DNA of 64,000 bases from Candidatus Marinacidobacterales bacterium (GCA_965219415.1 OZ244742.1:1248001-1312000), one strand, 5' to 3'. Positions 1-19,700 are shown, numbered from the stretch's first letter. Numbers and translations are program-made. Notes: generated by a model not told the origin, from the letters alone.

Positions 1-1069
1 CGGCGTGTACCGCCCCAGGGCCATGATCGTCGCGACGAACCCGAGAAGCACCCAGAAACGACACCAACGGTCTCGACGACTTGCGCAGAATCCGAGGATC
101 GCGAGCGCGACCGCACCCAAGCCGAAGTACATCGACGTGAAGAGCGGTGGGTACCCGCCGTTCAAGGCGCGGAGCCAAAGGTTGGGTTGGCCCGCCGGGG
201 GAAAGCGTTCTCCGAAGACGGGCCACGCTATGGTCTCAGTAAGTGCCAATGGATGAAGAGCAAGGAGCTCACCGAGTTCCTGTTGCGCACGAGCCGAACG
301 GCTGGTGGCTTCGAAGAGCGGCAACAGCTGCACCGCAACCAACAGGCCGCCCAAGCCAACCGCGACGAGAGCCAAGCCGAGGCGTTTGCTTAGACGGGGT
401 CGCTCTCGGCCTCCCGCCGCAAATACCACGTAGGCGAGGGCGACCGCGCCGGTCACCGCGGCAGTCAGTGGTTCTCCGGCCAGGATCTGAATCCCTTGGA
501 GCACGCTCCAAGCTGCAAACCGCACGCCACGAGGGCGCTCGTGCGAGAGCATCCGCGGCCCAGAGAATCCAAGGCACTAGGGCGAGCGACCAGGAGAGGT
601 TGAGCGAGCTTGCGGTGGAAACAACGGGACCGGCTAGTGAGAAAATACTCGCCGCGAAGGACGCCCCCACCAACGAAAGGTGGCGCCGAAAAAAGAAAAA
701 CGCACCCGACCCGGCCAAGACGATCGGCAGCAGAACCAAGAAGTTGAACCCGAGCACCGGGGGCAGGAGCAAGCGGATTGGGAGCGTCGGGAAGAACAGA
801 ATCTGACGCACCGGATCCGCAATCGCCGATTGTCCGAACGCTACATACGGGTCCCACAGTGGTAGCTCACCGGAAAGGAGAGACCCGCGCAGCCACAAAT
901 GCTCGGGCCAGTAGAAGAACGAGAGAGCCCGATCGAAAAAGAGGCGCGAGGTGCTCAGTCCCTGGCTCATCACCAACAGGGCACCAAGCGTCGGCGGTAG
1001 AGCCCAAACCCATTCGCGGCAAGAGCTAGTCTTGATCATACGGGAAAAACTGTAGGGGAGAGGAAACAC
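1..1069 (-). CDS. YfhO-like (GT-C-type) polytopic membrane protein; frameshift near 505; runs off the window start
   Basis: ORF 269-1069 has ELPLWDPYVAFGQSAIADP and several TM segments. After a shift near 505 another frame reads QILAGEP...VQLLPLFE...SMYFG...ALGRYTP to position 1, which are motifs typical of YfhO-like proteins. Confidence 0.7.
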
Positions 1070-1577
1070 ATGATTGTACCGCCCGGTTGGAGAGTGCGCA
1101 ACCGTTCAGGAGAACGACTTGGCCGCGAGAACGGTGACTAAATCCGCAAGCTACAGCATCGGGGCGTTCGACACGTCGCGTGCGAAATCTCACACTTGAG
1201 GCGCGCTCTACCGCAACACACGCATGTCCCTACCCTCCATCTTTTCGGGAAGGCGTAGGCCAGGAGATATCTCCAGCCCCGAGTACTTGAGGCGCGCACT
1301 CAACACCGACTTCTCATTCCTCTTCTGGTTGAAGGAGAACGGCTACGAAACAGTCGCCTATACGCCGGACATGTACGAGTTCGACCTAGAGCTCTTCGAT
1401 CACGTGACCTTCCACAAGCAGAACCCGGGTGCCGAGGCTCTGGTCGAAATGAACATGGCCACTTTCCAAAGGTTGTGGGTATGGAGCAATTCCCCACGAT
1501 TGTTGACGAGGATGCTCTTGGGCACCAAGTGGTTCATCGAGTTCGGCGGAGAGAATTTGCGGTTGGTTAAGAACAGA

Positions 1578-2961
1578 GGGTTTACGCGGATTCGTGTGGG
1601 TAAGTTCTGACGGGAAAACAGTGTAACTCATTGTGTGGAAAAGGTATCGAGTACTTCATCAGGTGCTGAAAAGTGGTCCATTTTTAGGATAGGCTAACCG
1701 AGTGAAAAATTCCCAGTCGATCCGCTCGCTGTTCGCGCTGCCAGGTTTCGTGGTTGGTGCCGGATTGAAGGGTCTATTCGGTGACCGATACGCCCGTGTC
1801 ATCCAGCTCAAGAGGCGAAAAAAACAGCTGTGTGCTCTTACTGTGGGCAACGGTGCCGGGGGCGCTATGACAAGCAAGTGTGCCGGGTCCGCGACCTGTC
1901 GTTGGCAGGCTGGCGGATCTATCTGGAATACGAGCGTTGGCGCGTCAACTGTTCTGGGTGCGGCGGTGTGCATGTAGAACACCTAGACTGGCTGGCGAAC
2001 AACTCGCGCTACACCCAGCGTTTTGCGACGCATGTGGGCAAGCTGCGCCGGGATATGCCGAACAAGGCGGTGGCCGAGATGGAACGTCTGCACCACGGTA
2101 CGGTGAAGGCTCTGGATACGCTCTACATGCAAGAGCAGGTCGACCGGGCGGGGCTACCGGCGCCTCGGGCCATCGGTGTCGATGAGATCTCCATCCGCAA
2201 GGGACATAACTATCGCGTCATTGTCAGCGACCTGGAGCGGGCGCGTCCCATCTGGGTGGGCGGTGAGGGTCGCAAAGAAACCGACATCGATTTGTTCTTC
2301 AAGGCGCTGGGCGGAAAGAAAAGCGCCCGTATCAAGCTGGCCGCCATGGATATGTGGAAGCCCTTCCGGAACTCGGTGATTCACAACGCGCCTAATGCGC
2401 GGATCATCTTCGACAAGTTTCATATCATGCGTCATCTGTCAAAGGCCCTCGATGAGGTCCGGCGCGGTGAGTACAAACGCCTCAGCGGCAAGGACCGGTC
2501 GTACATCAAGGGGCAGCGTTACACTTTGCTTTCCCGGCGGGAGAACCTGAGCCTAGACGGTCGCCGCGCACTCAAAAAGTTGCTCCAGGCCAACCGGCGC
2601 CTGAACACCGCCTATATTTTGAAGGAGATCTTCGGGCAACTCTGGGATTACCGCACCGAACGCGGCGCTCGCGCCTTTTTCACTCGTTGGAAAGACAGCC
2701 TCAAATGGCAACGCCTGCATCCGTACCAGAAGTTCGCCGGTATGATTGAGTCCCATTGGGATGGTATCGCCTCCTACTGTCATCCGGAGAACAAAGTCAG
2801 TCTCGGCCTAGTTGAAGGGGTCAACAACAAAATCCGTGTTCTGCAACGACGCGCCTACGGCTATCGCGACGAGGAATATCTCAAGCTGAAGATCGTGGCG
2901 GCTTTCCTTCCGCCATTACCCAGAAATGCAGTTTTCAACCCACACGAATCCGCGTAGACCC
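1578..2961 (+). mobile_element. ISL3-family insertion sequence, copy A
   Basis: 24-bp terminal IRs GGGTTTACGCGGATTCGTGTGGGT / ACCCACACGAATCCGCGTAGACCC (1 mismatch); 8-bp TSD AGAACAGA at 1570-1577 and 2962-2969; near-identical copy at 48849-50233. Confidence 0.95.
1702..2957 (+). CDS. ISL3 transposase (zinc finger + DDE), probably joined by a -1 frameshift at A7 1818-1824
   Basis: ORF 1702-1977 overlaps ORF 1830-2957 in the -1 frame. Motifs are CSYC/CSGC, IGVDE, MDMW, FDKFH and EGVNNKIRVLQRRAYGY. Confidence 0.9.
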
Positions 2962-3490
2962 AGAACAGAAACTTCCTACCCTTTTCGGTTCCGATAACAT
3001 CCTATCTGAGTTTCTTGAACGTCCTGAAGCAAGAGGCCGAGCTCCCTGCCACAGGCCGTTATACGTTGATCCACGCCGTGCTCCCGCACACTCCGGAAGT
3101 GCTCGCCGCCGACTGCTCGTACGATGTGAGGGGCAGCGAGACGACGCAAGTGGAGCAAGCCGGCTGTACGACGAAGCTATTGGTGGACTTCGTAGAGCGA
3201 CTGAAGGAACTGGGACGATTCGACAACTCGCTGGTTATCGCTCACGCCGATCACGGGGTGTACGCGCCAGAGAGCAGTGCCGAGAACCCGGCGGAGAGGG
3301 TCTCGATGCGCGCACTGCTCCTGATCAAACCGATCGGCGGTCGCGGCGAACTAGCTGTCTCAGATGTGAAGAGCACCGTCATCGACATCGCACCTACTCT
3401 CTTACGCGCGCTCGCGGTCGAGAACCAGCTCCAAATGGAGGGCAAACCGTTGTTGGACGCGATGCCCGGCAACCGACTCGTAACGATGGA

Positions 3491-4225
3491 TTGACTCCGT
3501 TGGGACTTCGAAGGGGGCTCTCACCGTTTGCCCTGCTCGTGGTCTTGGCTCTCAACGGGTGCCAATCCGGTCCGCGAGATCGAGGAAAACCCAAAGACCC
3601 GGCCGGAGCTACTTCCCCGAAGCGCCCGGTCATCGGCGTCGGGTTGATTCTCGACACCGACCCGGGAGTCACCTACAAAGCTTACCAGCCCTTGATGGAT
3701 CATCTAACCTCCCACGCGCCGTTCTCATTTCAGATCCGGCTAGGAAGGACCTCGGAAGATCTGCTGAGATCGCTGGAAGAAAGAATGGCCGAGCTCGCTC
3801 CACTCGGGACGATCAGCTATCTCGAAGCTCACAAGCAGTTCGGAGCGGTGCCTCTGGTGAAGCCGCTGAATCGAAGCGGTGAGCCGCTGTCCCGAAGCGT
3901 CTTGATCACGCGAGAAGACAGCAATCTACGTTCCCTCGGCCAGCTAAAGGGCGGCTCGCTCGTTCTCGGATCGCACCACTCAACATTCGGCAACCTCATC
4001 CCTCGCCACGAGCTGATGCGTGCGGGCATCGATCCCGATGACCTAGCGAGCATCGAGCACGTGGACAGCGACGACGAGGTCGTGGCCGCCGTTTTGGAGG
4101 GCCGATTCGATGCCGGCGCGGTAGCGGATCTGGTAGCCCACGCCGCCGAAGGGGTTCGGGGGTTCGGATTTTTCATACCTCCGAGCCCTTTCCTAGCGCT
4201 CCGCTGGTGATCCGCGACGACCTCC
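3491..4225 (+). pseudogene. PhnD/SsuA-like phosphate/phosphonate substrate-binding lipoprotein copy 1; frameshift near 4145 and C-terminal truncation
   Basis: Lipoprotein-like signal (LALNGC), YQPLMDHL, GSHHSTFGNLIP and VLEGRFDAGAV. A second frame continues IFHTSEPFPSAPLVIRDDL and then homology to copy 2 stops. Confidence 0.75.
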
Positions 4226-4304
4226 GGGCAGTAGCATGAGCTCGAAGAGCGGTGCCGCGAAGGCAATGCGAATGCTCCTCGCATTCATGTCTTTGGTCCC
4301 GACT

Positions 4305-5297
4305 CCACTTACCATATCGTTCTCGATGGTTTCCAAACGGATGTTTTCGAGCTCGTTCGTTCCAGCGAGACAGAAAAGGCGTTGCGCGGCTTTACCTACT
4401 TCCCCAACAACACCGCCATCTACCACCTGACGGCGACCTCCCTTGCCTCGACCTTTGGCAGTTCACGCTACGACTATCGGAGAACTCGATCCGAGTACCT
4501 CTATGAAGCTCTGAACGGAAAGGACTCTCTCATCCAGCGGTTGAAGGACCGCGGCTACACCGCGGAGGTGTACATCCCAGCACGTCAAGAAACGCGGTTC
4601 AAGATTCCGGACTACGTGTTTAGCCACGCCGACTATGCCCGCGCCGACCTGTTGGTGATGAACACTTCATCGTTCGCTAGGCTGTGGCTATACAGCCAAG
4701 TTCCCCGAGCCTTGAGAATGCGCTTCTCCTCCGCCGCTCTCGATCCAGTCGACTTGAAGCGTCTGGAAGAAGGCCGGTTCCTCCCTTACTCCGGCCGTAT
4801 CGGCCCTGGGCTTCAGTAAATTGATGAAGGAGGAAGAAAGACTGCCGGCTTCGGGTCGGTACAGCTTTACTCACTTGCTCATGCCGCACCCACCGTACGT
4901 GCTGCGGCCCGACTGTTCCTATGAGCCATCGGGAGCGAAGACGGACATGTTGGCCCAAACGCAGTGCACTATGGAGCTACTCTTTGATTTCCTAGGCGTC
5001 CTACAAACGCTAGGGCGCTTCGAGGACAGCCTGATCTTGGTACACGGTGATCACGGAGGACACTACCGGATGAGAGACGGGAAGTTGATCGACTACCGCT
5101 CCCGGTCCTTGAGATCGCTGTTGCTGGTCAAACCTGTCGGGCGGGGCCAGGAGGACCGGTTCGAGGTGTCGCCACGGAAGTCGTCGCTGCTCGATATCGC
5201 ACCGACCATCTTGGACTGTGTCGGTATCGACGTCTCCCGAGAGTTTGACGCTTTCGAGGGAAACTCCCTCAGCGACGCGGTACCTTGCTCCGACTGA
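4305..5297 (+). pseudogene. Sulfatase-like (AlkP superfamily) protein copy 2; N-terminus missing, frameshift near 4795
   Basis: The frame of ORF 4382 extends upstream as YHIVLDGFQTDVF (paralog: YHLIFDAYQTDLF). ORF 4821-5297 has HLLMPHPPY, HGDHG and DIAPTIL. Confidence 0.75.
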
Positions 5298-5361
5298 GAA
5301 TCGAGGGAGAATTAGTATTAACCAATTTAAACACAAAAGGTTAGATGCCGTCGCCTCTCCC

Positions 5362-5390
5362 TTGACACTGGCAAACCCGCATGGCATCCT
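5362..5390 (+). promoter_or_regulatory. Putative sigma-70 promoter for PhnD-like copy 2
   Basis: TTGACA-17 bp-CATCCT with TG before the -10 and an AT-rich upstream stretch. Confidence 0.4.
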
Positions 5391-5862
5391 AACTGATACC
5401 AACTGACATCGGCGCTTTCGGCTTCGCCGTCTAACGCAATCTTGAGTCCCGATTCTCCACGACCCTTTTCCCAAACGGCCGGGCGAGTACCGGAAGGCTA
5501 TTATTAACCTTGATGACGTATCTGCGCTCCTCCCTGATCCTGTTGCTCGCCCCGGCGATGCTCGTCCTTCCCGTTACGGGCTGCCATCAAGGGAGCGGAA
5601 ACAGAGAGGAGGCGCCGCCGGCAGAGCCGGAGCAGAATATCTCGTCGCTCGATGGCGACCGCTCATCATGTTGTCCTTCATGGAGCCGATAGACAGCGTC
5701 CTTTCGACGAAAGCGCATCAGCCTCTCGTGGACTATCTCACCGCACAAACCCCTTTTCGCTATCGGGCCATTTTCAGCAGCGAGTCCGAGAGGAACGTCG
5801 GCTTCCTCGAGGAACGACTGGTCGAAATTTCACACCTGAGAGTCGTAAGTTACCTGGAGGCA

Positions 5863-7300
5863 GAGTCAAGCCCATTCTTAGTTGAAACTCTCCACGGCTC
5901 ACGTTTAAGCGACCTTCTTCTTCGATACGGTTGATGTCTTCGCCTCGATCTTCAGTTCCCGCTTGAGAGCTTCGCGAAGCTTGGGAAGATGGCGGTAGCC
6001 ACCACCACCTTCCTCAAGCGCGGTTCGATGTCTACGAGCGCCGTTGCCAACCAGCGCTGGCGTTGGCTCGAGTTCTTCCAGTGGTCGACCTTCGCGCAGC
6101 GTTCCTCGACGAGAGCATTGACGGACTCAAGGCAGTTCGTCGTCTTGAACGAACGGCCCAGCACCGCGTGCACGCCGAGTCGATGCAACGTCAGCGTCTC
6201 CTCGAGGCCTTCCTCCAGGCTGCCAGCTGCGGATTGGTTCCGCTCTTCTAACTCACCGTGGAGTTGCTCGAGCGCAGTGAGGGCCTCTTCGTACTCCGGC
6301 CTGTTGTAGGCCCACTGGAGCCGCTTGCGCCATGACGCCTGCTCGCCCTTGGACAGGTAGCTCACTACGTTTTCACGTTTGTTGCCACTGGCAGCGTTGT
6401 ATCAGGGCCCGCTTACGGAATGCCTTCTTGACTGCCGCTTGGAGACCCTTGCCGCCGTCGATGATCACCAGCAGACCCTGGGAGATATCGAGTCCCCGCT
6501 CGAGCAGTGAACGCAGGAACGGCGTCAACACCTGCGCGTTCTCCGTGTCCGTCTCCACGAAGCCCAAGAAGCGTTTTTCCCCGCAAAGCGTGATGCCCAG
6601 AGCCACGACCATCGTTGCCTCGGCGAATGTCTTCCCATCCAGAAACAGCGCCACCACATCCTCGCCGGTCAGATCCCGTTCCTGCATCTCCCGCAGCTTC
6701 GCAGCGCTCGCTTGCACGAACCCTCGGGACACCGTTGAGCTCGACAGCCCGATGGCGCCCGGAATCGCTTCCGCTGCCGCCTCGTAGTTGCGACAAGAGA
6801 TTCCGTAGAGAACTCGTTTCAGCAGAAGATCATTCACCTCACCGCCGTGGCTCACCGCCTCGTAGCAGCGAAGCGGAATCTCTCCTCCCTCGATGCTCCG
6901 AACCCGTGGCACACGGATCGGTACCCGCTGGCCGCCAAGCCCTACCGTGCCCGGGTTGCTTCCGGGACGGCGACCGCGCTCCAGCTCGTCCTTGCGAGAG
7001 TATCGCTCTCCCGCCAACGCCTTCACTTCGTCGTCGAGCAACTCGTGAACGTGCATTAGACCAAGGGGGACCAACCAACGGATCATCTCTACCTTGGCGT
7101 CCAGCACGAGTTCCCCGTAATCCTCGTGCCTCACCATCTCGACCTCACCCAAACGACGCGACTTCTTGCGTTTCTTGACCGAACGTAGCAGACTTCCCAT
7201 CTCGGCTCCTTTCTTCGCGGCTTGATTTTGTTTTGTCCAACGCCATCAAACCACGGGGTTTGGAGCCGTTTCAATTCCCAACTAAGATTGGCACACTTTC
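5863..7300 (-). mobile_element. IS256-family insertion sequence
   Basis: 8-bp TSD TGGAGGCA at 5855-5862 and 7301-7308. Imperfect terminal IRs share CCA-TCTTAGTTG (GAGTCAAGCCCATTCTTAGTTG vs GAAAGTGTGCCAATCTTAGTTG). Confidence 0.88.
5952..7200 (-). pseudogene. IS256/Mutator transposase, frameshifted near 6385
   Basis: LFLDG, IIDGGKGL, QRCQW then (shifted) KRENVVSYL, and TTNCLESVN are IS256 DDE motifs. Confidence 0.85.
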
Positions 7301-7918
7301 TGGAGGCACGCGACCAGTTCGGAGCGGTGCCGATAGTAAAACCTCTGAACCGCGACGGTGAACCGATCTCGCGGAGCGTCTTGATCACGCGAGAGGACAC
7401 CGATATCGATACACTCACGGATCTGAGAGGACGGTCTTTGGCACTGGGATCGTTTCATTCCACGTTGAGCAACCTCGTACCGCGCTACGAGCTCATCCAA
7501 GCGGGAGTCGATCCTAAAGATCTCGAATCCATGGAGCGTCTGGCCAACGACGATGAGGTGGCGAAAGCCGTTTTGGCCGGTCGGTTCGACGCCGGGGCGG
7601 TGGAGGACATCGTCGCCGAGCGTTACAGCCAGAAAGGGCTTAGAGCTTTCCACGTTTCCGGTCCGATTCCGAAAGGCCCGCTGGCCATTCGCGACGACCT
7701 TCCTCGGCGAGTCGAATCGGCGATTCGCGACGCTCTCCTGAAGTTGAACCCCAAAGGGGCAGAAAGCCGACAGGATTGGGCCGAGGAGATCCGATACGGT
7801 TTCCAACCCGCGGTGGACTCCGACTACGAACCCATTCGAAAAATTCTGAACACCGCACCTACCGGATGTCGTGAATCATGTCACGGAAGCTCTTGAAGTG
7901 AGGTTAGAAGGGAGCGCT

Positions 7919-9864
7919 TTGCGTCACTCTATCACCCTTGCCCTATCCCTCCTGCCCACTCCCCTGCTGGTATTTGTCTCATCCTCGAGCGCCATTTACC
8001 TGAAGAATCAAAGTCTATTGCAGTACCAGTACCAAGTGCTGACTCCGTTCGCCAAGTTTGCCTTCGTGACCCTGTTGGTTGGGATCGCGCTGGCGGTCTT
8101 GTCCAAGTACCGTCGCCTTTTTCAATATGGTTTGTGGGTCTACTACTTGGCCGGCCCCGTTTTCCTACTCTTCGGTTTCTTCCGGCCTCTCCAGGCAGAG
8201 TTGCCGGGCCTGGACGTGCTCTACCAAACGATGGCGGGGCTTGCTTTCTGGCCGGCTCTACTCGTCGTCGCGACCATCGTCCTGACAAGGCGGTTGAGAA
8301 CTCAGTCGCGGGCCACCATGACGAGGGCCTTCGCGGTATTCGGTCTCGCTTTGTTCGTCTATGAAGCGGGCGGCTTGCTCTATCACGTGTCCTCCTCCGT
8401 GCCCGGCCCCCCGCTAATGTCCTCGAGGGTCGGCAACGGGCAGGCAAGGGAAACTCTTTACCCAACGTGTACCACCTCATCTTCGATGCGTATCAGACCG
8501 ATCTGTTCGACCACACCTTGTCCCCTAGAGCGAAGGAATCGTTAGGAGGATTCTCCTACTTTCCCAGCACGACAGCCATATCCGCATACACGCCCATCTC
8601 CCTGGCCTCGATCTTCTCCGGCCGACAGTATTTCTATGACCAAGCCCGCGGCGACTACATCACTCAGGCGTTCAGCTCCGAGAAATCGCTTCTCTATTGG
8701 CTCAAGTCGCACAAGTACGAGATCGTGGGGTACGGGACGAACACCTGGCGCCGTCGTGATCACTTCTTCGATCGGATGGTCACCCATGGAGACGCGGCGC
8801 GGGACGACCTCCTGGCACTCAATACCGAAGCCTTTCGGGACCTCTGGCTCTTCAGTAACATTCCCGTCCCTTTGAAGCCCGCCGTCATGCGGACCACCTT
8901 GTTCGCTCAGCTCGACGAAAAGGACCTGAAGCTACTGGAAAACGGGAGATTGTTACCGTACTCGGCACCGGTGACGTCTTACATCGGCTTCAGGAAGATG
9001 ATGGCCGACGAAGAGAGCCTCTCGCCCACCGGGCGATACACCCTCGTGCACGTCGTGATTCCTCATCATCCTCACAAGTTGGGCGCGGATTGCACCTACA
9101 CCCTGGGTTCGACGAGAACCGGGGTCATCGAGCAATCCGAATGCGCGCTCAAGATGGTCTTGGAGTTCATCGATCATCTCGAGAATCTGGGCCGCTTCGA
9201 CGATTCTTTGATACTCATCCACGGCGACCACGGCGGTCCGTATCGCACCAAGAACGGCGAATTGGCAACCGAGGCCCGGTCCCGTTCCTTGAGCACCGTC
9301 TTGCTCATCAAACCGATGGGGCAGGCGAGGACCGGTAGGCTCCAAGTCTTGGACTCGGAATTGAGCCTCATGGACGTTCCCTCCGTTGTGATTGGTTCAG
9401 TCGCCGAAGCGGCGTTAAGCGAGCCGCGAACAGTCCCTTGGGACTTGAACCAAAGATTCGTCCCTCTCGTTGAAGGTGAGCTCTTCGAATCGGCGCAACT
9501 GATTTTGAAACGGCAAGGATTCTCGCTCGGCGAGGTGAAAGAGATCGCTAACGAGAGCTACCCGGCGGGTACCGTCATCTCGCAGGATCCTCCCGCCTAC
9601 CAAGAAGGCCCGAACCCCGAAGCCATCAAGATCGTCCTCTCCACTGGCCATCCGGGCGGTGCGGATATCATGCCCGACTTCGTGGGCCGCGACATCACCG
9701 AAGTGAGCGATTGGCTGAAACAAAAAAGTCTCCCCGCTTCGAGCATCCGCCACGTCGTCCATGCGTGAGCTCCCGAAGGAATGGTGGTGAGGCAGACCCC
9801 TCGTGCCGGGGCGGAAACCAAAGGCAGTGGTAAGATTGCGTTCTACGTGAGTAAGGGCAGATAG
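7919..9864 (+). CDS. Membrane-anchored sulfatase-like (AlkP superfamily) transferase/hydrolase with C-terminal PASTA repeats (frameshifts near 8460 and 9765)
   Basis: Multi-TM N-terminus (ORF 7871-8545); catalytic domain PNVYHLIFDAY...YTPISLASIFSG...HVVIPHHP...HGDHG. PASTA-like VPLVEG...YPAGTVISQDPP...IVLSTG and MPDFVGRDITEV...PEGMVVRQTPRAG...FYVSKG (last part in a shifted frame, stop at 9862-9864). Confidence 0.75.
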
Positions 9865-10115: not shown

Positions 10116-11990
10116 CTACACCCACTCTTGTTCAGTCGCCGTGGTCACATCGGGCTGCGCAGGAACGTTCAAAATAAACGTCGTGCCGTCCCCGGGTGAG
10201 GATTTCACGTCCACCTCGCCGTTGTGGCACACCGCAATCTTCTGCACGATCGAAAGCCCGAGGCCGGTACCCTCTGACTTCGTAGTGAAGAAGGGTGAAA
10301 AGATGCGAGGAAGATCCTCTTCTTGAATGCCAGGACCGTTGTCCGACACACGTACGAAGGCCACCCCGTTACGACCTCCGGCTTCCAGCCGGACCTCACC
10401 CGCTTCGCCACGCTCATTTCCTGACGCCGCCTCGATGGCGTTGAGCACAAGGTTGGAGACCGCCTTTCTGAGGAGCATCTCATCGGCCTCCACCGTTAGT
10501 TGTACTTTCGCAGCGTTGGCCTGTGGCTCGAGGTCGCGGGACAGATCTCGGGCCATTTCCGCCATATCGAAAGGCACCGCACGCAGGGTTTCCGGCCGTG
10601 CGAATTGGAGAAACTCCGTCACCACTCGATTGAGCGACGAACACTCCTCGACCAACGCGTCAACGACCGTATTGTCTTCCTCAGAAGACACCGATTGCCC
10701 CAGGAGCTTGGCGTTACCAAGCATAGTGGCCAGACTGTTGCGAAACTCATGGGCGATTCCGGCCGCCATCTCGCCGAGACGCGCCAAATTCTCCTTGATG
10801 AAGAGTCTCTGACGAAGCTCGATGACTTCGGTTAAGTCGGCGAAAAGACAGAGCGCACCTCGTACTTTTCCTTCCGTCGACGGAAGTGATAGCACGCTCG
10901 TCCCTAGATGGATCGACTCGCCGGACTGGCGTCGGTAGTCCACACGCCGTCGAAGCGACTGCGATCCCTCGGCGAGCGCTCGAGCCATCCATTCGGCAAG
11001 TACCTCAGAGCCAGGAAAGGCTTCCTGAAAACACTTTCCTTGAAGCGACTGCGCGTCCACACCGAAGATTCTCTCCGCCGCCGGATTCACCACGGTGACT
11101 CGACCAGTATCGTCGAGGCTGACAAGACCGGTGGTCATACTACGGATAATGTCGGTGGCCAGGGCCTCGGTCTCATCCGCCCGTGCCTTCTCCATTCGAT
11201 GCATCTCGGCGAGCTGCTTCTCCTTTTCTTTCAGCTTCGCTACGACATCTTGGAAGGTGGAGAGAAGAAACTGGCCTTCGTCCGCGGAAGCTGAAGTGGA
11301 CGTTAGATCTCCCGCTACCGAGCGGGCTTCCGCTAGGAGCCGGCGGTGAGGGGCCAGGAGACCATTGAGAAAAAGCACCAGAGTCAGTAGGACCAGGCTG
11401 AGTGCCGAGACCTGGTAGACGAGCGTGGAGCGGAAACCCCGATTCGCTTCCGCCAGCGACGACGCGGAAAACTGTAGGCGGAGCACCCCTCGTTCGGTCC
11501 CGTCCGGATACTTTAGGGCGAGGTAGCCGAATGCGGTAGCACTCTCCGGCTGGTAAGCGGGGGAGACCTCGGTCATGCTCCACCCGCGATCGACGAGCTG
11601 ATACTTCCCCACCCGATCCAATCGATCGAAATCGAGCACATCTGAGAGTCGACAGTCGGACGAGCCGGCGAGGATCCTTCCGTTCCAATCCAAGAGACAA
11701 GCAGAGCCAGCGCCGTGTTTTTCCGCTAGCTCTTGGAGAAGCTTGGACAGGGCTGCCGATACCCGGAATCGATCGGCACCGGCGGAGTTCCCGGTTGTTG
11801 CCAGCAGGCCCGCCAGACGGGAGGCCATGAGCTCCGCCTTCGACCGAGCGGCCTCATCGAAGGCAGTGGTGAGAATTTTGCGCGACGTGTGCGAGAAGTG
11901 CAGACTCTGACTGTTGACGATGACCAGGACGATGATCAGGAACGCCAGAAACAGCCGGACCCGATTCTCGTGAGAAACAAAGTCAGCCAC
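10116..11990 (-). CDS. Membrane PAS-domain sensor histidine kinase (PilS/NtrB-like)
   Basis: Two TM helices, PAS (VNPAAERIFG), H-box AHEFRNSL, N-box NLVLNAIEA, and DNGPG / GTGLGL boxes. Confidence 0.9.
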   Translation of the reverse strand: MADFVSHENRVRLFLAFLIIVLVIVNSQSLHFSHTSRKILTTAFDEAARSKAELMASRLAGLLATTGNSAGADRFRVSAALSKLLQELAEKHGAGSACLLDWNGRILAGSSDCRLSDVLDFDRLDRVGKYQLVDRGWSMTEVSPAYQPESATAFGYLALKYPDGTERGVLRLQFSASSLAEANRGFRSTLVYQVSALSLVLLTLVLFLNGLLAPHRRLLAEARSVAGDLTSTSASADEGQFLLSTFQDVVAKLKEKEKQLAEMHRMEKARADETEALATDIIRSMTTGLVSLDDTGRVTVVNPAAERIFGVDAQSLQGKCFQEAFPGSEVLAEWMARALAEGSQSLRRRVDYRRQSGESIHLGTSVLSLPSTEGKVRGALCLFADLTEVIELRQRLFIKENLARLGEMAAGIAHEFRNSLATMLGNAKLLGQSVSSEEDNTVVDALVEECSSLNRVVTEFLQFARPETLRAVPFDMAEMARDLSRDLEPQANAAKVQLTVEADEMLLRKAVSNLVLNAIEAASGNERGEAGEVRLEAGGRNGVAFVRVSDNGPGIQEEDLPRIFSPFFTTKSEGTGLGLSIVQKIAVCHNGEVDVKSSPGDGTTFILNVPAQPDVTTATEQEWV

Positions 11991-12003: not shown

Positions 12004-12810
12004 CTAAAAGAGGTTGAAGTACCAATCGATCAGCGGGGGCCCGGCGAACAGCGTGCCCACCGCGGCCACGCCGAGAAAAGTCCCGAAGGGAAGTGCGGTC
12101 TTGAGGTCCTTTCCGCGTGTGACCATGAGCGCTACGCCGACCAGAGATCCCAAGAGCGAGCCGAAGAAGATGGTGAGCAGAACACCTTTCCAACCGACGA
12201 AGGCCCCCACCATGGCCATCATCTTCACGTCCCCCATTCCAAGCCCTTCGACCTTTCTTACCTTGAAATAGACCTCGGCCACGACATAGAGTAGGCCGGC
12301 TCCCAGCGCCGCTCCTGTCAAGGCCTGGGTTACGTTGATGGGCTCACGAATTGATGCCAAAAGGAGACCGACAAGAGCTCCGGGTATGGTTATGACGTTG
12401 GGGAGTATTCGATGATCGTAATCGATGAATACCAGGGCGACCATCGCCGCAACGAATGCGAACTCGACTCCGTACTCGACTCCGAAGCCGTGGCGTAGGT
12501 ACGCGATCAGAGAGGCGGCAGCCACCAACAGCTCTACTAAGGGGTAGCGGATCGAGATCGGAGCTTTGCAATGTCGACACCGACCCCAGAGCAACAGATA
12601 GCTCAGGACCGGAATGTTGTCATAGGGCGCGATCGGTTTCTTGCACTTGGGGCACGCCGAGGGCGGAAAAACAACCGACTCATCCCGAGGCAAACGGTGA
12701 ATGAGCACGTTGACGAAGCTGCCCCAAATGAGCCCGAAGAGAGTGATCAATAAAGGTCCCAACCAAGGGAGGTCCCTGAAGGTCGAGATGTTCGCGATGA
12801 GCAGGCTCAC
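12004..12810 (-). CDS. pilD: Prepilin peptidase / N-methyltransferase
   Basis: GSFVNVLIHRLP, CPKC...CRHC zinc site, IDYD and GMGDVKM aspartates, LPFGTFL. Confidence 0.93.
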   Translation of the reverse strand: MSLLIANISTFRDLPWLGPLLITLFGLIWGSFVNVLIHRLPRDESVVFPPSACPKCKKPIAPYDNIPVLSYLLLWGRCRHCKAPISIRYPLVELLVAAASLIAYLRHGFGVEYGVEFAFVAAMVALVFIDYDHRILPNVITIPGALVGLLLASIREPINVTQALTGAALGAGLLYVVAEVYFKVRKVEGLGMGDVKMMAMVGAFVGWKGVLLTIFFGSLLGSLVGVALMVTRGKDLKTALPFGTFLGVAAVGTLFAGPPLIDWYFNLF

Positions 12811-12849: not shown

Positions 12850-13767
12850 CTACCGATCCGGCAGTGCAGAGAGGAAAGAGTCTTCGGAGACTTCCGCCTT
12901 CTCGTCGCGGGGGTTCAAAACGTACGGCACACCGATGGGGTCCACAGGCACTCGCCGCAAGTAGCGGGCTTCGACCAGCGCCCGCCAGCTTTCCGGAAAT
13001 TGTCCAAACTGTTCTTTGTATTTTCGGGCAAGCTTCGTTAAGACCTCTATCTGATCCAGTGCGTCGAGCTGCTGCAGATGGATCTCGGCGTTGGCCTGCA
13101 TTTGGCTGTTCTCTGCGGTCTCGTAGAGTATTTTCCACAATTCCCGCGCCGTTTCGCGCTCTCCACCGCGTGCCAACGTCCGTCCGGCCGTGGCCACCAT
13201 CCAATAGGGTGCACCCGGAAGCTCGCTGCCCTCGAGAAAGATCTCGGCGGCGGTCTTGTAGTCTTTGAGAACCCAGAAATAAATGAAGCCCTTGTCCAAG
13301 TAAAAGCGCCAATAGTCGGGGTTGTTCTCGATTCCCTTGTCGATCAGGTTCAGGCCTTTGAGCGGCACACCCGCTCCCGTCGGCCAGGGCTCGGACAGCA
13401 AGGTCGCGCCGTAGGTGTAGGCGACATTCAGATGCGGGTCGAGAGTGGTGGTAATGTCGAGCAGCGGCTCGAGCAACTCGAATCTCTTATCCTGAGAATA
13501 AAGGCGCTGCCCGCCAAAGTACTGAACGGCCCGGAGCCAGTATAGGTCGGCGGCCACGCTCTCGAAGCCCAAAAGCACCTTCTTGAGAGTCTCTCCGTCC
13601 TCGACATAGAGGATTTCCTCGGTGGCGCGGTACTCGCCGAACCCGTCGTCGATGGCGACCTGGAGAAGCCAGACCGCGACAAAGAGCTGGGAGAGAACCG
13701 CGAGAAGGAGGAAGCCTTGGGATCGCCCGAGGGGGCTCGACGGCGCCTTATCTGTCACCTCGGTCAC
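12850..13767 (-). CDS. Membrane-anchored TPR-like pilus accessory protein (PilG/XapA-like position)
   Basis: One N-terminal TM, ADLYWLRAVQYFG, TTLDP, helical repeats and a C-terminal DPxG. It lies between the pilus ABC genes and pilD. Confidence 0.6.
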   Translation of the reverse strand: MTEVTDKAPSSPLGRSQGFLLLAVLSQLFVAVWLLQVAIDDGFGEYRATEEILYVEDGETLKKVLLGFESVAADLYWLRAVQYFGGQRLYSQDKRFELLEPLLDITTTLDPHLNVAYTYGATLLSEPWPTGAGVPLKGLNLIDKGIENNPDYWRFYLDKGFIYFWVLKDYKTAAEIFLEGSELPGAPYWMVATAGRTLARGGERETARELWKILYETAENSQMQANAEIHLQQLDALDQIEVLTKLARKYKEQFGQFPESWRALVEARYLRRVPVDPIGVPYVLNPRDEKAEVSEDSFLSALPDR

Positions 13768-13970
13768 GAGCTCATCTCGTCCCCGGCCTTCGCCAAGGCC
13801 ACGAGGTCCTCCACTTGTTGGTCGGTGAGCCCACCCATGACGTTCTCTTCGACCGTACCGCCGGGAGCGACCACGATACCGCGGTGCCTTCCGCTCTGCC
13901 GGATGTAGAGCTCGATCCCCCCTACCGCAAGGAGGAAGAGCGCTACTGCCAGCCAGCGCTTTCCCTTCAC
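13764..13970 (-). CDS. Small membrane-anchored hypothetical protein
   Basis: 68-aa ORF with an N-terminal hydrophobic helix and a GGAG RBS; its stop overlaps the next start. Confidence 0.5.
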   Translation of the reverse strand: MKGKRWLAVALFLLAVGGIELYIRQSGRHRGIVVAPGGTVEENVMGGLTDQQVEDLVALAKAGDEMSS

Positions 13971-13983
13971 GTAGAACCGACTC

Positions 13984-14751
13984 CTACTTGAGATTCCGGC
14001 GATTGAACACCACCGCCGCTATAATGAGCAAAATCGCGATGTAAATCACGCCATACGCGGTCGAGTAACCGAGCATCGTCAACGGAACCGCATCGCCTGC
14101 GACGACCCGAGACTTGACGTCGAAGTTTCGGAGGTTTGGCACCACGTAATAAACGACCTGGGTCAATTGCGGCAAAAATCCCGACTCGACAACCGTATCG
14201 AGATGCTTGAGCTCGGTCGAGAAATGCCCCACCACGTAAAAGAATCCGGTAAAGACCGCGCTCAGAATAGACGAAGTGAACGTACTAAACAGAAGGGCCA
14301 GAGCTGTGATAAGCGCCATCTCGAAGTAGAGGAGGTAGATGGCCTTCAACAGCGCCGGTTCGAAGCTGCGGGTCATGGCGAACAAAAGCGCATAGAGCCC
14401 GGCCGTCATGATCGCCACGTTCACCGCGAGCGTTAGGCAGAGTCCGAAATATTTCCCCAGAATGAAATGAACCCGAGAGATCGGTTTCGGTAACAGCGAG
14501 TAGAGGGTGCGTTTGTCCATCTCCTTCGAGACCAGGCCGATCCCGATAAAAATGGCGATCACCGAACCAAAGACGGCGATCGCTGCGAGCCCCAGATCCT
14601 TGATGATCTTGACTTCCTGGTAGACGGAGATCTGTCCCAACACGTAGGAGCAGGCGATCATGATGAGCGCGAAGAGGATCAGGTTGTAGAGCACCTTATC
14701 GCGGACCGTTTCCCGGTAGGTGTTCAGCGAGATGAAGGCGATCTTACTCAT
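13984..14751 (-). CDS. ABC-2 permease (PilI-like)
   Basis: NTYRETVRDK, EMDKRTLYSLLPKPISR...GKYFG and about six TM segments; coupled to the ATPase gene. Confidence 0.85.
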   Translation of the reverse strand: MSKIAFISLNTYRETVRDKVLYNLILFALIMIACSYVLGQISVYQEVKIIKDLGLAAIAVFGSVIAIFIGIGLVSKEMDKRTLYSLLPKPISRVHFILGKYFGLCLTLAVNVAIMTAGLYALLFAMTRSFEPALLKAIYLLYFEMALITALALLFSTFTSSILSAVFTGFFYVVGHFSTELKHLDTVVESGFLPQLTQVVYYVVPNLRNFDVKSRVVAGDAVPLTMLGYSTAYGVIYIAILLIIAAVVFNRRNLK

Positions 14752-15686
14752 GGTCTCTCGACTCCGGTGGCGGCCACTTCACGGACGAAATACTCCTCGA
14801 GTGTCTGACGAACAGGTTGCACCGAAACGAGACGCGCTCCGTTCGACTGCACCATGCTCAGAACCTTATCCAGAACCTCCTCGCCTCCCAGTTCCAACTT
14901 GATGCTCTCACCTAACCGGTGCAGGCGAGACGCGATGGCGCCGAGCTCTTGCTCCAATCCGTTGGAGACATTCCCCAAAACGACTTCTATCGTCAGCGAC
15001 AGGTCAAGGATTTCCGAGAGCTTGCCTTCCCTGACCTTCTTCCCGTGGTTCAAGATCGCGACCCGGTCGCACAAGGCCTCGACGTCGGGGAGGATGTGCG
15101 AGCAGAAGAGAACGGTAACCCCTTCGTTCTTGAGCTCTCGAACGAGCACTGTCATGTCGCGCCGCCCCATGGGGTCGAGGCCCGACATAGGCTCGTCCAG
15201 GAAAACGATACGCGGCCGGTTGAGCAGAGCCTGTGCCACACCGAGTCGTTGCGTCATCCCCTTGGAGTACTCGCGAAGTTGAGAATCTCCCGCCGCTGTC
15301 AGACCCACTCGTTGAAGCAAGTCGTTCGTTCTGCGGAGGCGCTCGCCGCGCCCGAGGCCAAAGAGTTGCCCGAAGTAGTTCAGCAACTCCCGACCGGTCA
15401 AATAGTCGTAAAAATAGGGCTGCTCGGGGAGATAACCGATCTGTGCCTTCATGGTGAGATCATGGAGAGGCTTGCCGAGAATCTTGGCCCGCCCCTCGGT
15501 CGAGAATACCAGCCCCATCAGAAGCTTGAGCGTGGTGGTCTTCCCGGCACCATTGGGACCGATCAAACCGAAGATCTCGCCTTGGTCTATGCTGAGGGAG
15601 AGATTGTCGAGGGCCCGCTTCGTCTTTCGGGAGAACGGGCCCACGGGATAGTCCTTCGTCAAACCATCGATTTCGACATCGGTCAT
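14748..15686 (-). CDS. ABC transporter ATP-binding protein (PilH-like)
   Basis: Walker A GPNGAGKT, signature YSKGM, Walker B FLDEP, H-loop SH. Confidence 0.9.
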   Translation of the reverse strand: MTDVEIDGLTKDYPVGPFSRKTKRALDNLSLSIDQGEIFGLIGPNGAGKTTTLKLLMGLVFSTEGRAKILGKPLHDLTMKAQIGYLPEQPYFYDYLTGRELLNYFGQLFGLGRGERLRRTNDLLQRVGLTAAGDSQLREYSKGMTQRLGVAQALLNRPRIVFLDEPMSGLDPMGRRDMTVLVRELKNEGVTVLFCSHILPDVEALCDRVAILNHGKKVREGKLSEILDLSLTIEVVLGNVSNGLEQELGAIASRLHRLGESIKLELGGEEVLDKVLSMVQSNGARLVSVQPVRQTLEEYFVREVAATGVERP

Positions 15687-15814
15687 GCGCACTTCCTCGA
15701 AAACTGTCAGAACTTGTAGGTTTCTACGTTGTTTCTGAAACTGCTTCGCGCCGAGCCTTCGCGGGAGCGAAAGCTAGCGTCTTCGTAGAGAGGCGGACTC
15801 CTTCTTAGCGACGT

Positions 15815-16361
15815 CTAATCCAGAGTGAACGTTCCCGAGGGAATCGGACAAGCAATGGGGTTCCCTGCCTGGTCAAAGTAAATCGCGCCTGCCGGCGTGC
15901 CCGAGTAGGCCCGCACGCCGGTCAGCCCCATGTTGATTGGTACGGAATGGTAGCAGAAATCGAATAATGATCCGGGATCGCATCTCGCCGTATCCTGTCC
16001 CGCGGCTGGATTCGTCAAATAGTCCCTGGTGCACCCCCTCTTACTGTATGGCGTCGTTCGACCTGTATGGCGTCGTTCGACCGAGGTCCCGCCCCAAGAA
16101 CGCAGGCGCGGCCGTTGGATATCCCGGGATGCAGACCGAGTCGTCGGTCATGCAGACCAAAGACGCAGCGAACAGGCCGCAATTGCTCGAAGCATAAGTG
16201 ACCGCAGCGGAAATGACGGTTCGGGTATCCCCAATGACCCGGGCTTCGTTAGCCGCGACGCGGGCGCGAAGAAGGCTGGGGATGGCGATTGCGGCGATGA
16301 TACCGATGATGGCTACGACGATAAGAAGTTCGATGAGTGTGAATCCGTTTCTCTCTTTCAT
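15815..16361 (-). pseudogene. pilA: Second type IVa pilin, frameshifted by a 19-bp tandem duplication
   Basis: MKERNG|FTLIELLIVVAIIGIIAAIAIP. Deleting one copy of 16044-16081 joins ORFs 16041-16421 and 15815-16018 into a full paralog of the 16460-17005 pilin. Confidence 0.85.
16044..16081. repeat. Exact 19-bp tandem duplication (CTGTATGGCGTCGTTCGAC)x2
   Basis: Read directly at 16044-16062 and 16063-16081. Confidence 0.95.
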
Positions 16362-16395
16362 CGTGGCCCCCTCATCCATCCGCCAGAAGAAGTTG

Positions 16396-16430
16396 GAGGA
16401 AAGGGTGGCTAACACAGCCACCCTTTCCTC
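16396..16430 (-). terminator. Perfect 15-bp stem-loop between the two pilin genes (terminator/attenuator)
   Basis: GAGGAAAGGGTGGCT-AACAC-AGCCACCCTTTCCTC, followed on the minus strand by CAACTTCTTCT. Confidence 0.75.
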
Positions 16431-16435
16431 TCGGG

Positions 16436-16465
16436 GCTGCTACTCGCTGCTACTCGCTGCTACTC
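16436..16465. repeat. 10-bp tandem repeat (GCTGCTACTC)x3 overlapping the pilA stop codon
   Basis: Read directly from the sequence. Confidence 0.9.
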
Positions 16466-17005
16466 GAGGAAGAGCGAGCTGCTGTCAGCCGGGCAAGCCA
16501 CCTGAGCACCATCCGGCGTGATATAGATGGCTCCCGTCGCGGAACCCATGAAACCCCGCACACCAGTGAGCCCCATGTTGGTCGGAGTCGAGTGGTAGCA
16601 GTAGTCCGTCTCGCTACTGCCGTCGCAGCGCAGGCTGTCAAACCCGCTCGGGGACGTTCCAACAGCTTGCCATTCCCGGTCGTAACCAGACTTCTGGTAG
16701 GTCGAGTTCCTTCCGAGGTCGCCACCCACGAACTCAGGCGCTGCCGTCGGATAGTTCGGAATTCCCACACCGGCGCAGTCTCCGCCGTTCCGGCACAGGT
16801 TGATCAGGTCAGAGAAGAACCCGCAGTTGGCAGAAGCGTAGGTCTGCTCTGCCGAGATGACCGACCGGGTGTCCCCGATGGCCTGCGCTTCGTTCGCGGA
16901 GACGCGAGCACGAAGCAAACTGGGAATGGCGATGGCGGCAATAATGCCGATAATCGCCACGACGATCAACAGCTCGATCAGCGTGAATCCCTTCCGATTT
17001 CTCAT
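16460..17005 (-). CDS. pilA: Major type IVa pilin (six Cys)
   Basis: Class III signal MRNRKG|FTLIELLIVVAIIGIIAAIAIP; AAGGAG RBS; sigma-54 promoter upstream. Confidence 0.92.
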   Translation of the reverse strand: MRNRKGFTLIELLIVVAIIGIIAAIAIPSLLRARVSANEAQAIGDTRSVISAEQTYASANCGFFSDLINLCRNGGDCAGVGIPNYPTAAPEFVGGDLGRNSTYQKSGYDREWQAVGTSPSGFDSLRCDGSSETDYCYHSTPTNMGLTGVRGFMGSATGAIYITPDGAQVACPADSSSLFLE

Positions 17006-18322: not shown

Positions 18323-19700
18323 CTCAGATCGTATTTCTGAAGAAGATAGCGAAAGGAGCGAAGATTCATGTGTAGGAACTTGGCGGCTCGGGTTTGCACT
18401 CCCCCCGCCCGCTCCAGGGCGAGCGATAGCAGACGCCGTTCAATACCTCCGATGTGGTCATGGAAATCCAGCCCGTCCTCTGGGAGCTCGACGAGTCCCT
18501 CTCCGTCGGCCGCCGCGATCGCCGCGGTGCTGCCTTCCTGAATCTTCTCCGGCAGCCTCTCCGGCAGAATGACCTGCGAAGGCTCGAGCGCCACCGCACG
18601 CTCGATGACGTTCTCGAGCTCTCGCACGTTACCTGGCCAGTCGCATCGGGTCATGAGCTCCATGGCTTCATCGGAGATCTTCGCAATGCGTTTGTTCATA
18701 TCCTTATTGGCCTTCGTCAAAAAATGTTCCGCCAACATTGGGATGTCGTCTCGGCCGTTCTCGGAGCGGGACCATGTGAAGGGGATGACGTTCAGGCGGT
18801 AAAAGAGATCTTCACGGAAGGTCTTTTCCCCCACCATTCTCTCGAGGTCCTTGTTGCTGGCGGCGATGATCCGAACGTCAACCTCGATCTCCTCAGTAGA
18901 GCCGATACGGCGGATTCTCTTGTCCTGCAGGACTCGCAGCAGCTTCACTTGCATCGCTGGGCTCATCTCGCCGATCTCATCGAGAAAGATGCTCCCGGTA
19001 TGAGCCACTTCGAACAGGCCCTTGTGGTTGGCATGCGCGCCGGTAAAGGACCCCCTGAGATGACCGAATAGCTCACTCTCCAGCAGGGTCTCGGGTACCG
19101 CCCCGCAGTTGACGGAAACGAAAGGATCCGACTCCCGCGTGCTGTTCCCGTGGATGGCACGGGCGGCGAGCTCCTTCCCGGTGCCGCTCTCCCCGGTAAT
19201 GAGGATGGTGCTGTTGGTAGGAGCTACGGACTTGATCAAATCGAAGAGCTTGATCATCTTGGAGCTCCGCCCGAGCATCGCACCGAGGCCGTGCTTCTTG
19301 CGAAGCGTCCGCTTGAGGCTTACGACTTCCTCGGTCAGTTGCTGCTTTTCGAGTGCGTTTCTGATGGTGACTTTGAGCTCGTCGATCTTGAAGGGTTTCG
19401 CAATGTAGTCGTAGGCGCCCAGGCGCAACGCTTCCACCGCAGTTTCAGCGGACGAATAGGCGGTGATCATGATTACTGGGGTTCCCGGCGCGGATTGCTT
19501 CACTGCTCACAGGACGTCGACACCACTCATGTCGGGCATTTTGATGTCGGAAATGACCAGATCATAGGCAGCCTTCGAGAATGCCTCCACCGCCTTTTGC
19601 CCCGACTCCGCCATCGTTACCCGATAGCCCCCTTGCGAAGAGTTATCTCCAGAAGCTGGCGCATGGAAGTCTCGTCGTCGACCACCAGAATGCGGTTCAA
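18319..19700 (-). pseudogene. pilR: Sigma-54 response regulator PilR with an in-frame TGA (19507-19509) and a frameshift near 19630
   Basis: RILVVDDE...DLVISDIKMP receiver; GESGTGKE, GSFTGA, FLDEIGE, WPGNVRELEN and a Fis HTH. Also a compensated double shift near 18755-18780. Confidence 0.85.

Follow-up and report, generated by a model that had tools for sequence, protein, structure and literature searches.

What do binding proteins of the PhnD type do beside membrane-bound enzymes of the alkaline phosphatase (AlkP) superfamily, inside a pilus locus? The question is raised by positions 1-9864 of a 64,000-nucleotide stretch of a Candidatus Marinacidobacterales genome (G000:C1:1248001-1312000; this whole stretch is called the window), which belongs to an assembly of 8.05 Mb in three contigs with 59% G+C. 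Five pseudogenes were located there on the + strand in the order E1, D1, E2, D2, E3, where E stands for the enzyme and D for the PhnD-fold solute-binding protein (SBP). Based on comparison with related genomes, the region reads as the inactivated version of an array conserved in Vicinamibacteria/Marinacidobacterales, E1-[D1-E2]-[D2-E3], set inside a type IV pilus cluster. The best explanation, to which a probability of about one in two is given, is a periplasmic module, dead in G000, in which a binding protein partners a transferase of phospho- or phosphono-headgroups. The array probably decorates pili or surface sugars.

By analogy with EptA/PptA, LtaS and GacH, it is most likely that E would move a phospho- or phosphono-headgroup from a lipid donor in the membrane to a surface glycan or pilin. 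D, its canonical oxyanion pocket lost, would dock on the E encoded just downstream and serve as a regulatory or substrate-presenting subunit; docking is proposed because of the obligate adjacency of the two genes together with a weak complex prediction.

The array and its intact counterpart

In the sister species G001, of the same genus, the whole array is intact within the same type IV pilus cluster. Its products are E1 (527 amino acids, aa), D1 (329 aa), E2 (555 aa), D2 (314 aa) and an E3 with two PASTA domains (663 aa as an open reading frame (ORF), 654 aa as called). Upstream of it lie pilin genes, a 730-aa transmembrane (TM) sulfatase and a true sulfatase, and downstream a membrane protein of 850 aa with weak likeness to YfhO, the kinase also found in the window, PilD and two pilins. 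Pfam searches (24 ORFs from the first 15 kb of the window) and mapping on the G001 proteins confirmed the order and the + strand orientation of the five window genes, which a first interpretation made from the bare DNA (the sequence-only reading) had given as enzyme1-PhnD1-enzyme2-PhnD2-enzyme3. The same interpretation took the array for a tandem amplification. Duplicates are indeed present, but they are old, as judged from the 37% identity of E1 and E3 and from the separate best matches of E1-like, E2-like and E3-like proteins of other genera.

The features of the region are as follows.

1..1102, - strand: YfhO-like (GT-C type) membrane-protein pseudogene, 5' part, in frames 269-1069 and 1-552, with a third frame upstream of the window
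1203..1577, + strand: E1 fragment equivalent to residues 229-360 of G001 E1 (82% amino acid identity; 88% nucleotide identity to L022 9164-9539)
1578..2961, + strand: ISL3-family insertion sequence (IS) in E1, transposase at 1830-2957 (DDE_Tnp_ISL3, 1.3e-68)
2962..3494, + strand: E1 C-terminal fragment, residues 351-527, with HxxxPHxP and HADHG (Pfam Sulfatase 3015-3494)
3467..4228, + strand: D1 pseudogene, PhnD-fold lipoprotein (Phosphonate-bd 3491-4210, 1.1e-38)
4227..5303, + strand: E2 pseudogene (Pfam Sulfatase 4821-5297)
5513..5862, + strand: D2 5' part with lipoprotein signal, from alignment to G001
5863..7299, - strand: IS256/Mutator-family insertion sequence in D2 (Transposase_mut, 7.5e-20)
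7300..7896, + strand: D2 3' part, with a CxxxCH tail at its end (Phosphonate-bd 7222-7896, 8e-41)
7871..9861, + strand: E3 pseudogene with TM domain, AlkP-fold catalytic domain and two PASTA domains (Sulfatase 8467-9768; PASTA, E-value 7.8e-12)
10116..11990, - strand: sensor histidine kinase, intact, with 2 TM helices, a periplasmic domain of about 160 aa, PAS, HisKA and HATPase
12004..12810, - strand: prepilin peptidase PilD (Pfam), first of the downstream pilus genes
past PilD, to 25209: pilus genes, namely pilins (15818-17005), PilR, PilS, PilC, PilT and PilB

The array thus placed has minor pilins on one side and PilD, pilins and PilSR/C/T/B on the other. Lesions were mapped by protein and DNA alignment of the window against the intact G001 array. 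E1 has lost about 683 bp of 5' coding sequence, its TM domain, and is interrupted by the ISL3 element, which has 24-nt inverted repeats (96% complementary) and an 8-bp target duplication, AGAACAGA. In D1, 8 bp are duplicated in tandem near 4151 and the 3' end is short by about 208 bp. A 481-bp deletion at about 4310 takes most of the TM domain of E2, with a further 5 bp missing near 4797. D2 is one base short near 5654 and is interrupted by the IS256-family element, for which the target duplication is CTGGAGGCA and whose end is repeated genome-wide. In E3 a net +2 frameshift at 8389-8412, in the linker, is followed by a premature TGA at 9766-9768; a protein from another assembly (P0001), 94% identical to E3, is intact at 654 aa. 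G000 holds 45 near-full ISL3 copies (98.8-100% identical) and 34 near-full IS256-type copies (99.4-100% identical).

Read from the alignments, all five array genes and the flanking YfhO-like gene are inactivated in G000, amid a recent burst of ISL3 and IS256 elements. To judge by their form the lesions are not base-calling errors, since such errors would not yield IS elements flanked by duplicated targets, a tandem repeat of 8 bp or the loss of hundreds of bases at a time. The description of the array as now decaying is therefore well founded, given the IS insertions, deletions, small indels and the TGA relative to G001. A second D-E locus of G000, on contig C3, has an intact D and a broken E, and the same pair is intact in G001.

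The divergent YfhO-like gene that had been noted beside the array is present, but as a three-frame pseudogene running off the window start. It is 29% identical to the 850-aa membrane protein that follows E3 in G001. The YfhO model PF09586 matches only the final 50 residues of the C-terminal piece, which lies outside the window (E-value 3.9e-8; 32.6 bits against a cut-off of 28.5), and the pieces inside the window gave no Pfam match at an E-value of 1 or less.

Several observations concern the IS elements and the wider neighbourhood. The IS256-type transposase lies in two frames (6373-7200, 275 aa; 5952-6365, 137 aa), despite the near-identity of its 34 genomic copies. Around the pilus genes, comparison with G001 shows further damage at 15818-16361, 13767-13970 and 19697-20882: two frames are needed to read one member of a tandem pair of pilins, a 194-aa gene is without its middle and a PilS-like kinase is split. 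In another genus (G003), locus L048, the same locus as judged by its kinase and PilD, has an E that is broken, accompanied by IS66 and IS256 transposase genes; it seems that the module has been lost repeatedly or that the site attracts IS elements. Other large proteins with TM and Sulfatase parts (727-771 aa) are encoded just upstream of D-E loci in several genomes (L028:6151-8334, L025:2950-5259, L026:2565-4880); they are of two types, with BLASTP similarity neither to each other nor to E.

The enzyme, the binding protein and their pairing

The pairing of D with E was examined in a set of 41 related genomes. Fifteen matches to D were found, in seven genomes, and 13 of them lie directly upstream of E on the same strand, the other two being cut by contig ends (the unpublished genome G007 contributes 4 of the 15, three to the former group and one to the latter). 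In a metagenome survey of 79 D loci, scanned with a 9-row alignment, E is the next gene in 8 of the 9 loci with at least 44% identity to D2, the ninth contig ending 34 bp past D, as against none of the 70 loci with 42% identity or less. The partnership of binding protein and enzyme first supposed from the window alone is thus met in 13/13 assessable cases among the relatives and in 8/8 assessable metagenome loci. Distant homologues of D do sit in signalling operons, a placement that the sequence-only reading had named as speaking against the pairing; the close subfamily is always found with E. Seen from the enzyme, D adjoins E in only 8 of 63 loci surveyed in species-representative genomes, all of them in Acidobacteriota. 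Literature searches turned up no report in which a PF12974 protein is paired with a membrane enzyme of the sulfatase family.

A complex prediction in which E3 (residues 1-520) and D2 (residues 25-314) were both given alignments, scored 0.44, against 0.01 for the best of three controls, and so weakly supports the proposed contact. The mark applied is passed by 116 of 157 solved complexes and by 2 of 215 mismatched pairs; passes at scores of 0.60 or less number only 18 among the 157 solved complexes, yet include both of the mismatches that pass. At least 61% of the contacts agreed between runs, with a predicted local distance difference test (pLDDT) score of at least 81 for the partner. Taken with the obligate adjacency, the prediction raises the odds of docking moderately.

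E proteins are predicted to be inner-membrane enzymes with 5-6 TM helices and a periplasmic AlkP-superfamily domain, carrying a putative Thr nucleophile and the full set of metal ligands. In an alignment of 43 family members N189, H192, D196, H384, P388, H389, P391, C415, D443, H444 and G445 are invariant, and T231, S234 and C398 are found in at least 90% of the sequences, as are P22, N37, Q38 and Y82 of the TM part. The AlphaFold model of E (pLDDT 87.8; predicted template modelling score 0.82) has 5-6 N-terminal helices, a catalytic domain at about 186-520 and two PASTA domains. Based on Foldseek and structural alignment, the catalytic domain matches choline sulfatase, YejM/PbgA, EptC, LtaS, phosphonate monoester hydrolases and MCR-1 equally well (Z 20-21, root mean square deviation (rmsd) 3.3-4.5 Å over about 250 residues). 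E ties with all branches and is therefore placed in the AlkP superfamily, but is assigned to no known branch. Superfamily membership is also indicated by the Pfam Sulfatase match and by the invariant D196, H389, D443 and H444. The C/S-x-P-x-R signature of formylglycine sulfatases (S1) is not found in E, which has Thr at the nucleophile position in a T-x-x-S-L/V context; this local motif resembles that of phosphoethanolamine transferases.

The motifs noted in the window at the outset needed some correction. T-x-x-S-L-x-S was recovered in E1, E2 and E3, and HGDHG in E2 and E3, but E1 has HADHG; the motif written HxxPHxP is present, but its correct form is H-x-x-x-P-H-x-P, one residue longer (the invariant H384, P388, H389 and P391). 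Profile and structure searches likewise kept E within the AlkP superfamily as supposed, but gave no placement with LtaS or EptA, the tied folds including hydrolases. Pfam detected only Sulfatase and PASTA domains in intact E. NCBIfam gave nothing for E1 or E3 and, for E2, only a trace match to PehA (E-value 6.9e-4), and an Atlas look-up of E1 returned only unnamed "Sulfatase domain" clusters. The family is large: among 1.84 billion proteins, 1656 representatives were obtained at an E-value of 1e-30 or less and 7385 at 1e-10, some of them matching through PASTA repeats alone. No characterised member was found.

D proteins carry a lipoprotein signal and, when intact, match Pfam Phosphonate-bd (E-value 1e-46). 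The model (pLDDT 85.7) shows the two-lobe type II fold of PF12974, with structural matches to PtxB, HtxB, ArrX, PhnD and AioX (Z 26-29, rmsd 2.2-3.1 Å, about 250 residues); transferrins follow at Z 20. By sequence the best solved relatives are PtxB (1.4e-18) and then ArrX (6e-11). Scores against the PhnD equivalog TIGR03431 are 94.8 and 98.4 bits, below the cut-off of 261.1.

According to the cited part of PMC5908839, the oxyanion pocket of PhnD and AioX is formed by two Tyr, S-x-S and His. Four of these five positions are changed in E-coupled D (17 sequences) compared with the others (52 sequences). The first Tyr occurs in 0/17 against 43/52 and the second in 0/17 against 51/52; the second Ser position is L, W or I in 17/17 against S, A or T in 52/52; and His occurs in 0/17, with Asp in 14, against 52/52. 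The first Ser is kept in 17/17 and 52/52. D had been called a phosphate- or phosphonate-binding protein, a description that finds no support with the pocket so altered throughout the E-coupled clade.

Among 15 sampled loci of the nearest relatives that are not coupled to E, a histidine kinase is directly next in 13, a sigma54 regulator is found in 12 and a GGDEF-EAL protein in one; the kinases are mostly of the sCache_3_2-HAMP-HisKA-HATPase type. This layout corresponds to the AioX-AioS-AioR arrangement set out in the parts of PMC5908839 and PMC8050422 relied on here. In E-coupled D the gene that follows is E, in place of the kinase and sigma54 regulator of an AioX-like layout. In a quick tree the 17 E-coupled sequences form a single clade (SH-like approximate likelihood ratio test 99) on a long stem, nested among kinase-coupled proteins. 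As the phylogeny stands, D appears to descend from binding proteins that dock on sensor kinases, not from transporters.

A role of D in signalling to the kinase next to the array (10116-11990), which is a conserved neighbour in G001 and G003, was considered and found no support, the periplasmic part of this kinase being dissimilar to those of the kinases in the D sister clade. A role in feeding a phosphonate importer was rejected on the changed pocket and on the search for the permease PhnE (TIGR01097), which passed the cut-off in 0 of 5 genomes with D (G000, G001, G005, G012, G020) against 5 of 14 control genomes. The observation that phnC and phnE are lacking from the window can thus be extended genome-wide for PhnE at its curated cut-off, but PhnC was not searched for. 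The ATP-binding cassette (ABC) genes at 13984-15692 (- strand) are of the ABC-2 type.

Other features of the D family were recorded in passing. A C-x3-C-H tail follows the last helix in 17/17 E-coupled D and in 34/52 kinase-coupled relatives (7860-7896 of the window in D2); it is disordered in the D model and is not aligned with PtxB in the alignment shown, and could be a metal site, a haem-c-like site or a disulfide. Metagenome loci L117-L167 represent a broad, apparently uncharacterised PhnD-fold clade with the full oxyanion pocket, followed by an sCache/HAMP kinase and a sigma54 regulator in AioXSR-like fashion; L163 and L167 are tandem double-SBP fusions of about 570 aa. Far downstream in the window, a weak Phosphonate-bd match (58677-59147, 28.9 bits) falls within an open frame of 506 aa; a kinase-like match (62582-63346) is a few kb away, and the open frame may encode a sensor with an SBP-like domain.

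Surroundings of the enzyme and readings of its function

The neighbours of E elsewhere fit the surface-decoration role supposed in the sequence-only reading. A further set of 22 loci was taken from other phyla; in 11 of these, genes for glycan synthesis lie no more than 3.5 kb from E, among them glycosyltransferases, Wzx, Wzz, Wzt/ABC-2, sulfotransferase, AT3-SGNH and MBOAT genes. Four of the 63 loci, from three lineages, have a phosphoenolpyruvate (PEP) mutase (PepM) with the EDKx5NS motif within a few kb of E: one in Acidobacteriota (G005/L050), two in Woeseiaceae (L056, L066) and one in Pseudomaricurvus alkylphenolicus KCTC 32386 (L083). In all four the mutase is fused to a cytidylyltransferase (PntC-PepM) and is accompanied by Ppd, Fe-ADH and a TagF-like transferase. 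Six of the 63 loci have a prepilin motif no more than 10 kb from E.

The order in L083 is pilD-pilC-pilB (- strand), pilA (+ strand), a 655-aa protein with TM and TPR parts, E, PntC-PepM, Ppd, Fe-ADH and the TagF-like gene. The 655-aa protein groups in the Atlas with ArnT/PMT-like GT-C proteins, which is taken as a lead only. This stretch (L083:2592-16285) is a candidate locus for a pilin, or a pilin glycan, that carries phosphonate. Because the strain is named and in culture, and pilA, a GT-C protein gene, E and the phosphonate genes stand side by side in it, a direct test of the idea is possible.

EDKxxxxxNS is given as the PEP mutase motif in the quoted part of PMC6697681, where the PntC-Ppm fusions of Pnt clusters are said to make cytidine monophosphate (CMP) phosphonates for cell surfaces; the same text calls the later steps of phosphonyl tailoring enigmatic and names sulfatase-family genes 0 times. 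In the available portion of PMC8942020, sulfatase-family genes in pepM neighbourhoods are mentioned in passing only, and in PMC8931226 the word "pilin" occurs in the reference list only. As a probe for PepM, PF13714 was uninformative, matching 31 of the 41 relatives and 9 of the 14 controls, and the EDKx5NS motif and the G005 fusion protein were used instead. The motif had no in-gene occurrence in a six-frame scan of G000. Four further weak PepM matches in E-bearing genomes (about 300 aa) look like other proteins from the isocitrate-lyase family. A general link of the E family to phosphonates was rejected.

A number of results weigh against a headgroup-transferase module as the function of the array. 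E has no match to the EptA/MCR models (NCBIfam P_eth_NH2_trans/EptA, Pfam N-terminal domain) or to LtaS-specific Pfam models, and transferase and hydrolase are indistinguishable in E by sequence or fold, the AlkP branches being tied at Z 20-21. True PepM was found in only 3 of the 41 relatives (G005, G020, G026); it was not found in G000 or G001, where nothing matched the G005 PntC-PepM protein at 1e-15, and of 47 other genomes with E, searched in full, 8 have strong matches. Pilin proximity is not independent, because four of the six loci come from one order, that of the window itself. The D-E complex score falls in the weak band, and the nodes that nest D among kinase-coupled proteins have support of 84-90 in a midpoint-rooted tree from a quick search.

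A more specific form of the headgroup-transferase reading can be put forward tentatively. E would be the missing periplasmic last step of surface tailoring, both "phospho-form" and phosphonyl, a headgroup transferase with a lipid donor that acts on type IV pilin or its glycan, and in Vicinamibacteria a dedicated D, evolved from AioX-like kinase co-sensors, would activate or feed it.

E may instead be an ecto-hydrolase tethered to the membrane, releasing phosphate, phosphonate or sulfate from polymers or lipids, with D capturing the product for uptake. D has the fold of the transport proteins PtxB and PhnD, true sulfatases adjoin the array in G000, G001 and G005, and E2 faintly matches PehA, a model of phosphoric/sulfuric ester hydrolases, just as phosphonate monoester hydrolases are among the tied fold matches of E. 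Scavenging is nevertheless rather unlikely in view of the failure to find a PhnE-type permease above the cut-off in five genomes with D, the four changed pocket positions, the nearest relatives of D, which serve kinases and not transporters, and an enzyme with a conserved polytopic TM domain that lies by glycan-synthesis clusters in half of the loci from other phyla.

PASTA domains are ligand-binding modules, and E3 has two of them. E could alternatively be a receptor-like regulator in the manner of PbgA/YejM, whose periplasmic domains are among its tied fold matches, with D still a ligand sensor and the adjacent kinase perhaps involved; the sister clade of D is kinase-coupled, and the conserved neighbour is a kinase whose periplasmic domain has about 160 aa. 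Such signalling is more doubtful still. The predicted catalytic and metal residues of E are all invariant in 43 diverse sequences, unlike those of a pseudoenzyme, a D-E pair also exists without that kinase (L024), and the periplasmic part of the kinase does not resemble its sister-clade counterparts. That D and E are unrelated neighbours and the frameshifts assembly errors is very improbable: the assembly is in three contigs with 8.45% estimated contamination, but the adjacency recurs in every assessable case, in two families and in metagenomes, and the lesions include target-duplicating IS elements, a tandem duplication and long deletions.

If the transferase module partnered by D is real, it would be a new way of controlling envelope modification, and D would be the first solute-binding protein to control an envelope-modifying enzyme and not a transporter or signalling protein. 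E occurs beside PntC-PepM clusters, which makes it a concrete candidate for the steps that attach phosphonates to the cell surface, those termed enigmatic in the quoted part of PMC6697681. For the window itself the result is modest, namely IS-driven loss of a module and of some pilus genes in one lineage.

Comparison with known systems

EptA, MCR-1 and PptA share with E a polytopic N-terminal TM domain, a periplasmic AlkP-fold domain with His/Asp metal ligands, and a Thr nucleophile in a T-x-x-S-(V/L)-P/x-x-x-F-S context; E lies beside pilin genes in some genomes, and PptA modifies Neisseria pilin. They differ in that identity in structural alignment is 10-12%, a tie with sulfatases, with no match to the family models, and in that E is paired with a binding protein and E3 carries PASTA domains. 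LtaS and GacH resemble E in having about five TM helices and an extracytoplasmic sulfatase-fold domain, encoded in surface-polymer clusters (LtaS aligns at Z 20.5). E has no family-level sequence match to them, and its host is diderm.

On the side of the binding protein, AioX, ArrX and ArxX have the PF12974 fold, no ABC partner and a mode of action by docking on a membrane protein, as described in the cited part of PMC5908839, and ArrX matches D structurally at Z 27-28. Unlike them, E-coupled D has an enzyme and not a kinase as its downstream partner, and other residues stand in its pocket in place of both Tyr, one Ser and the His. PhnD, PtxB and HtxB share the fold (Z 27-29) and the Pfam family with D, which departs from them in scoring 98 bits against the 261 of the equivalog cut-off, in the lack of PhnE in the tested genomes, in its changed pocket and in its CxxxCH tail. 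Pnt clusters correspond to the four PepM-bearing E loci in their PntC-PepM fusion, Ppd, Fe-ADH and TagF-like genes, and differ from the window, since a true PepM was not found in G000 or its sister G001.

At the family level E reads as neither EptA/PptA, LtaS nor GacH, and D as neither AioX nor ArrX, so that these systems provide the nearest known logic only. The PF12974 fold is known, from the part of PMC10942540 cited here, in transport, signalling and sterol binding (BstB). If the present explanation is correct, the obligate pairing of D with an AlkP-type enzyme of the membrane would add a fourth use of the PhnD fold to those in ABC importers, sensor kinases (AioX/ArrX) and sterol trafficking (BstB).

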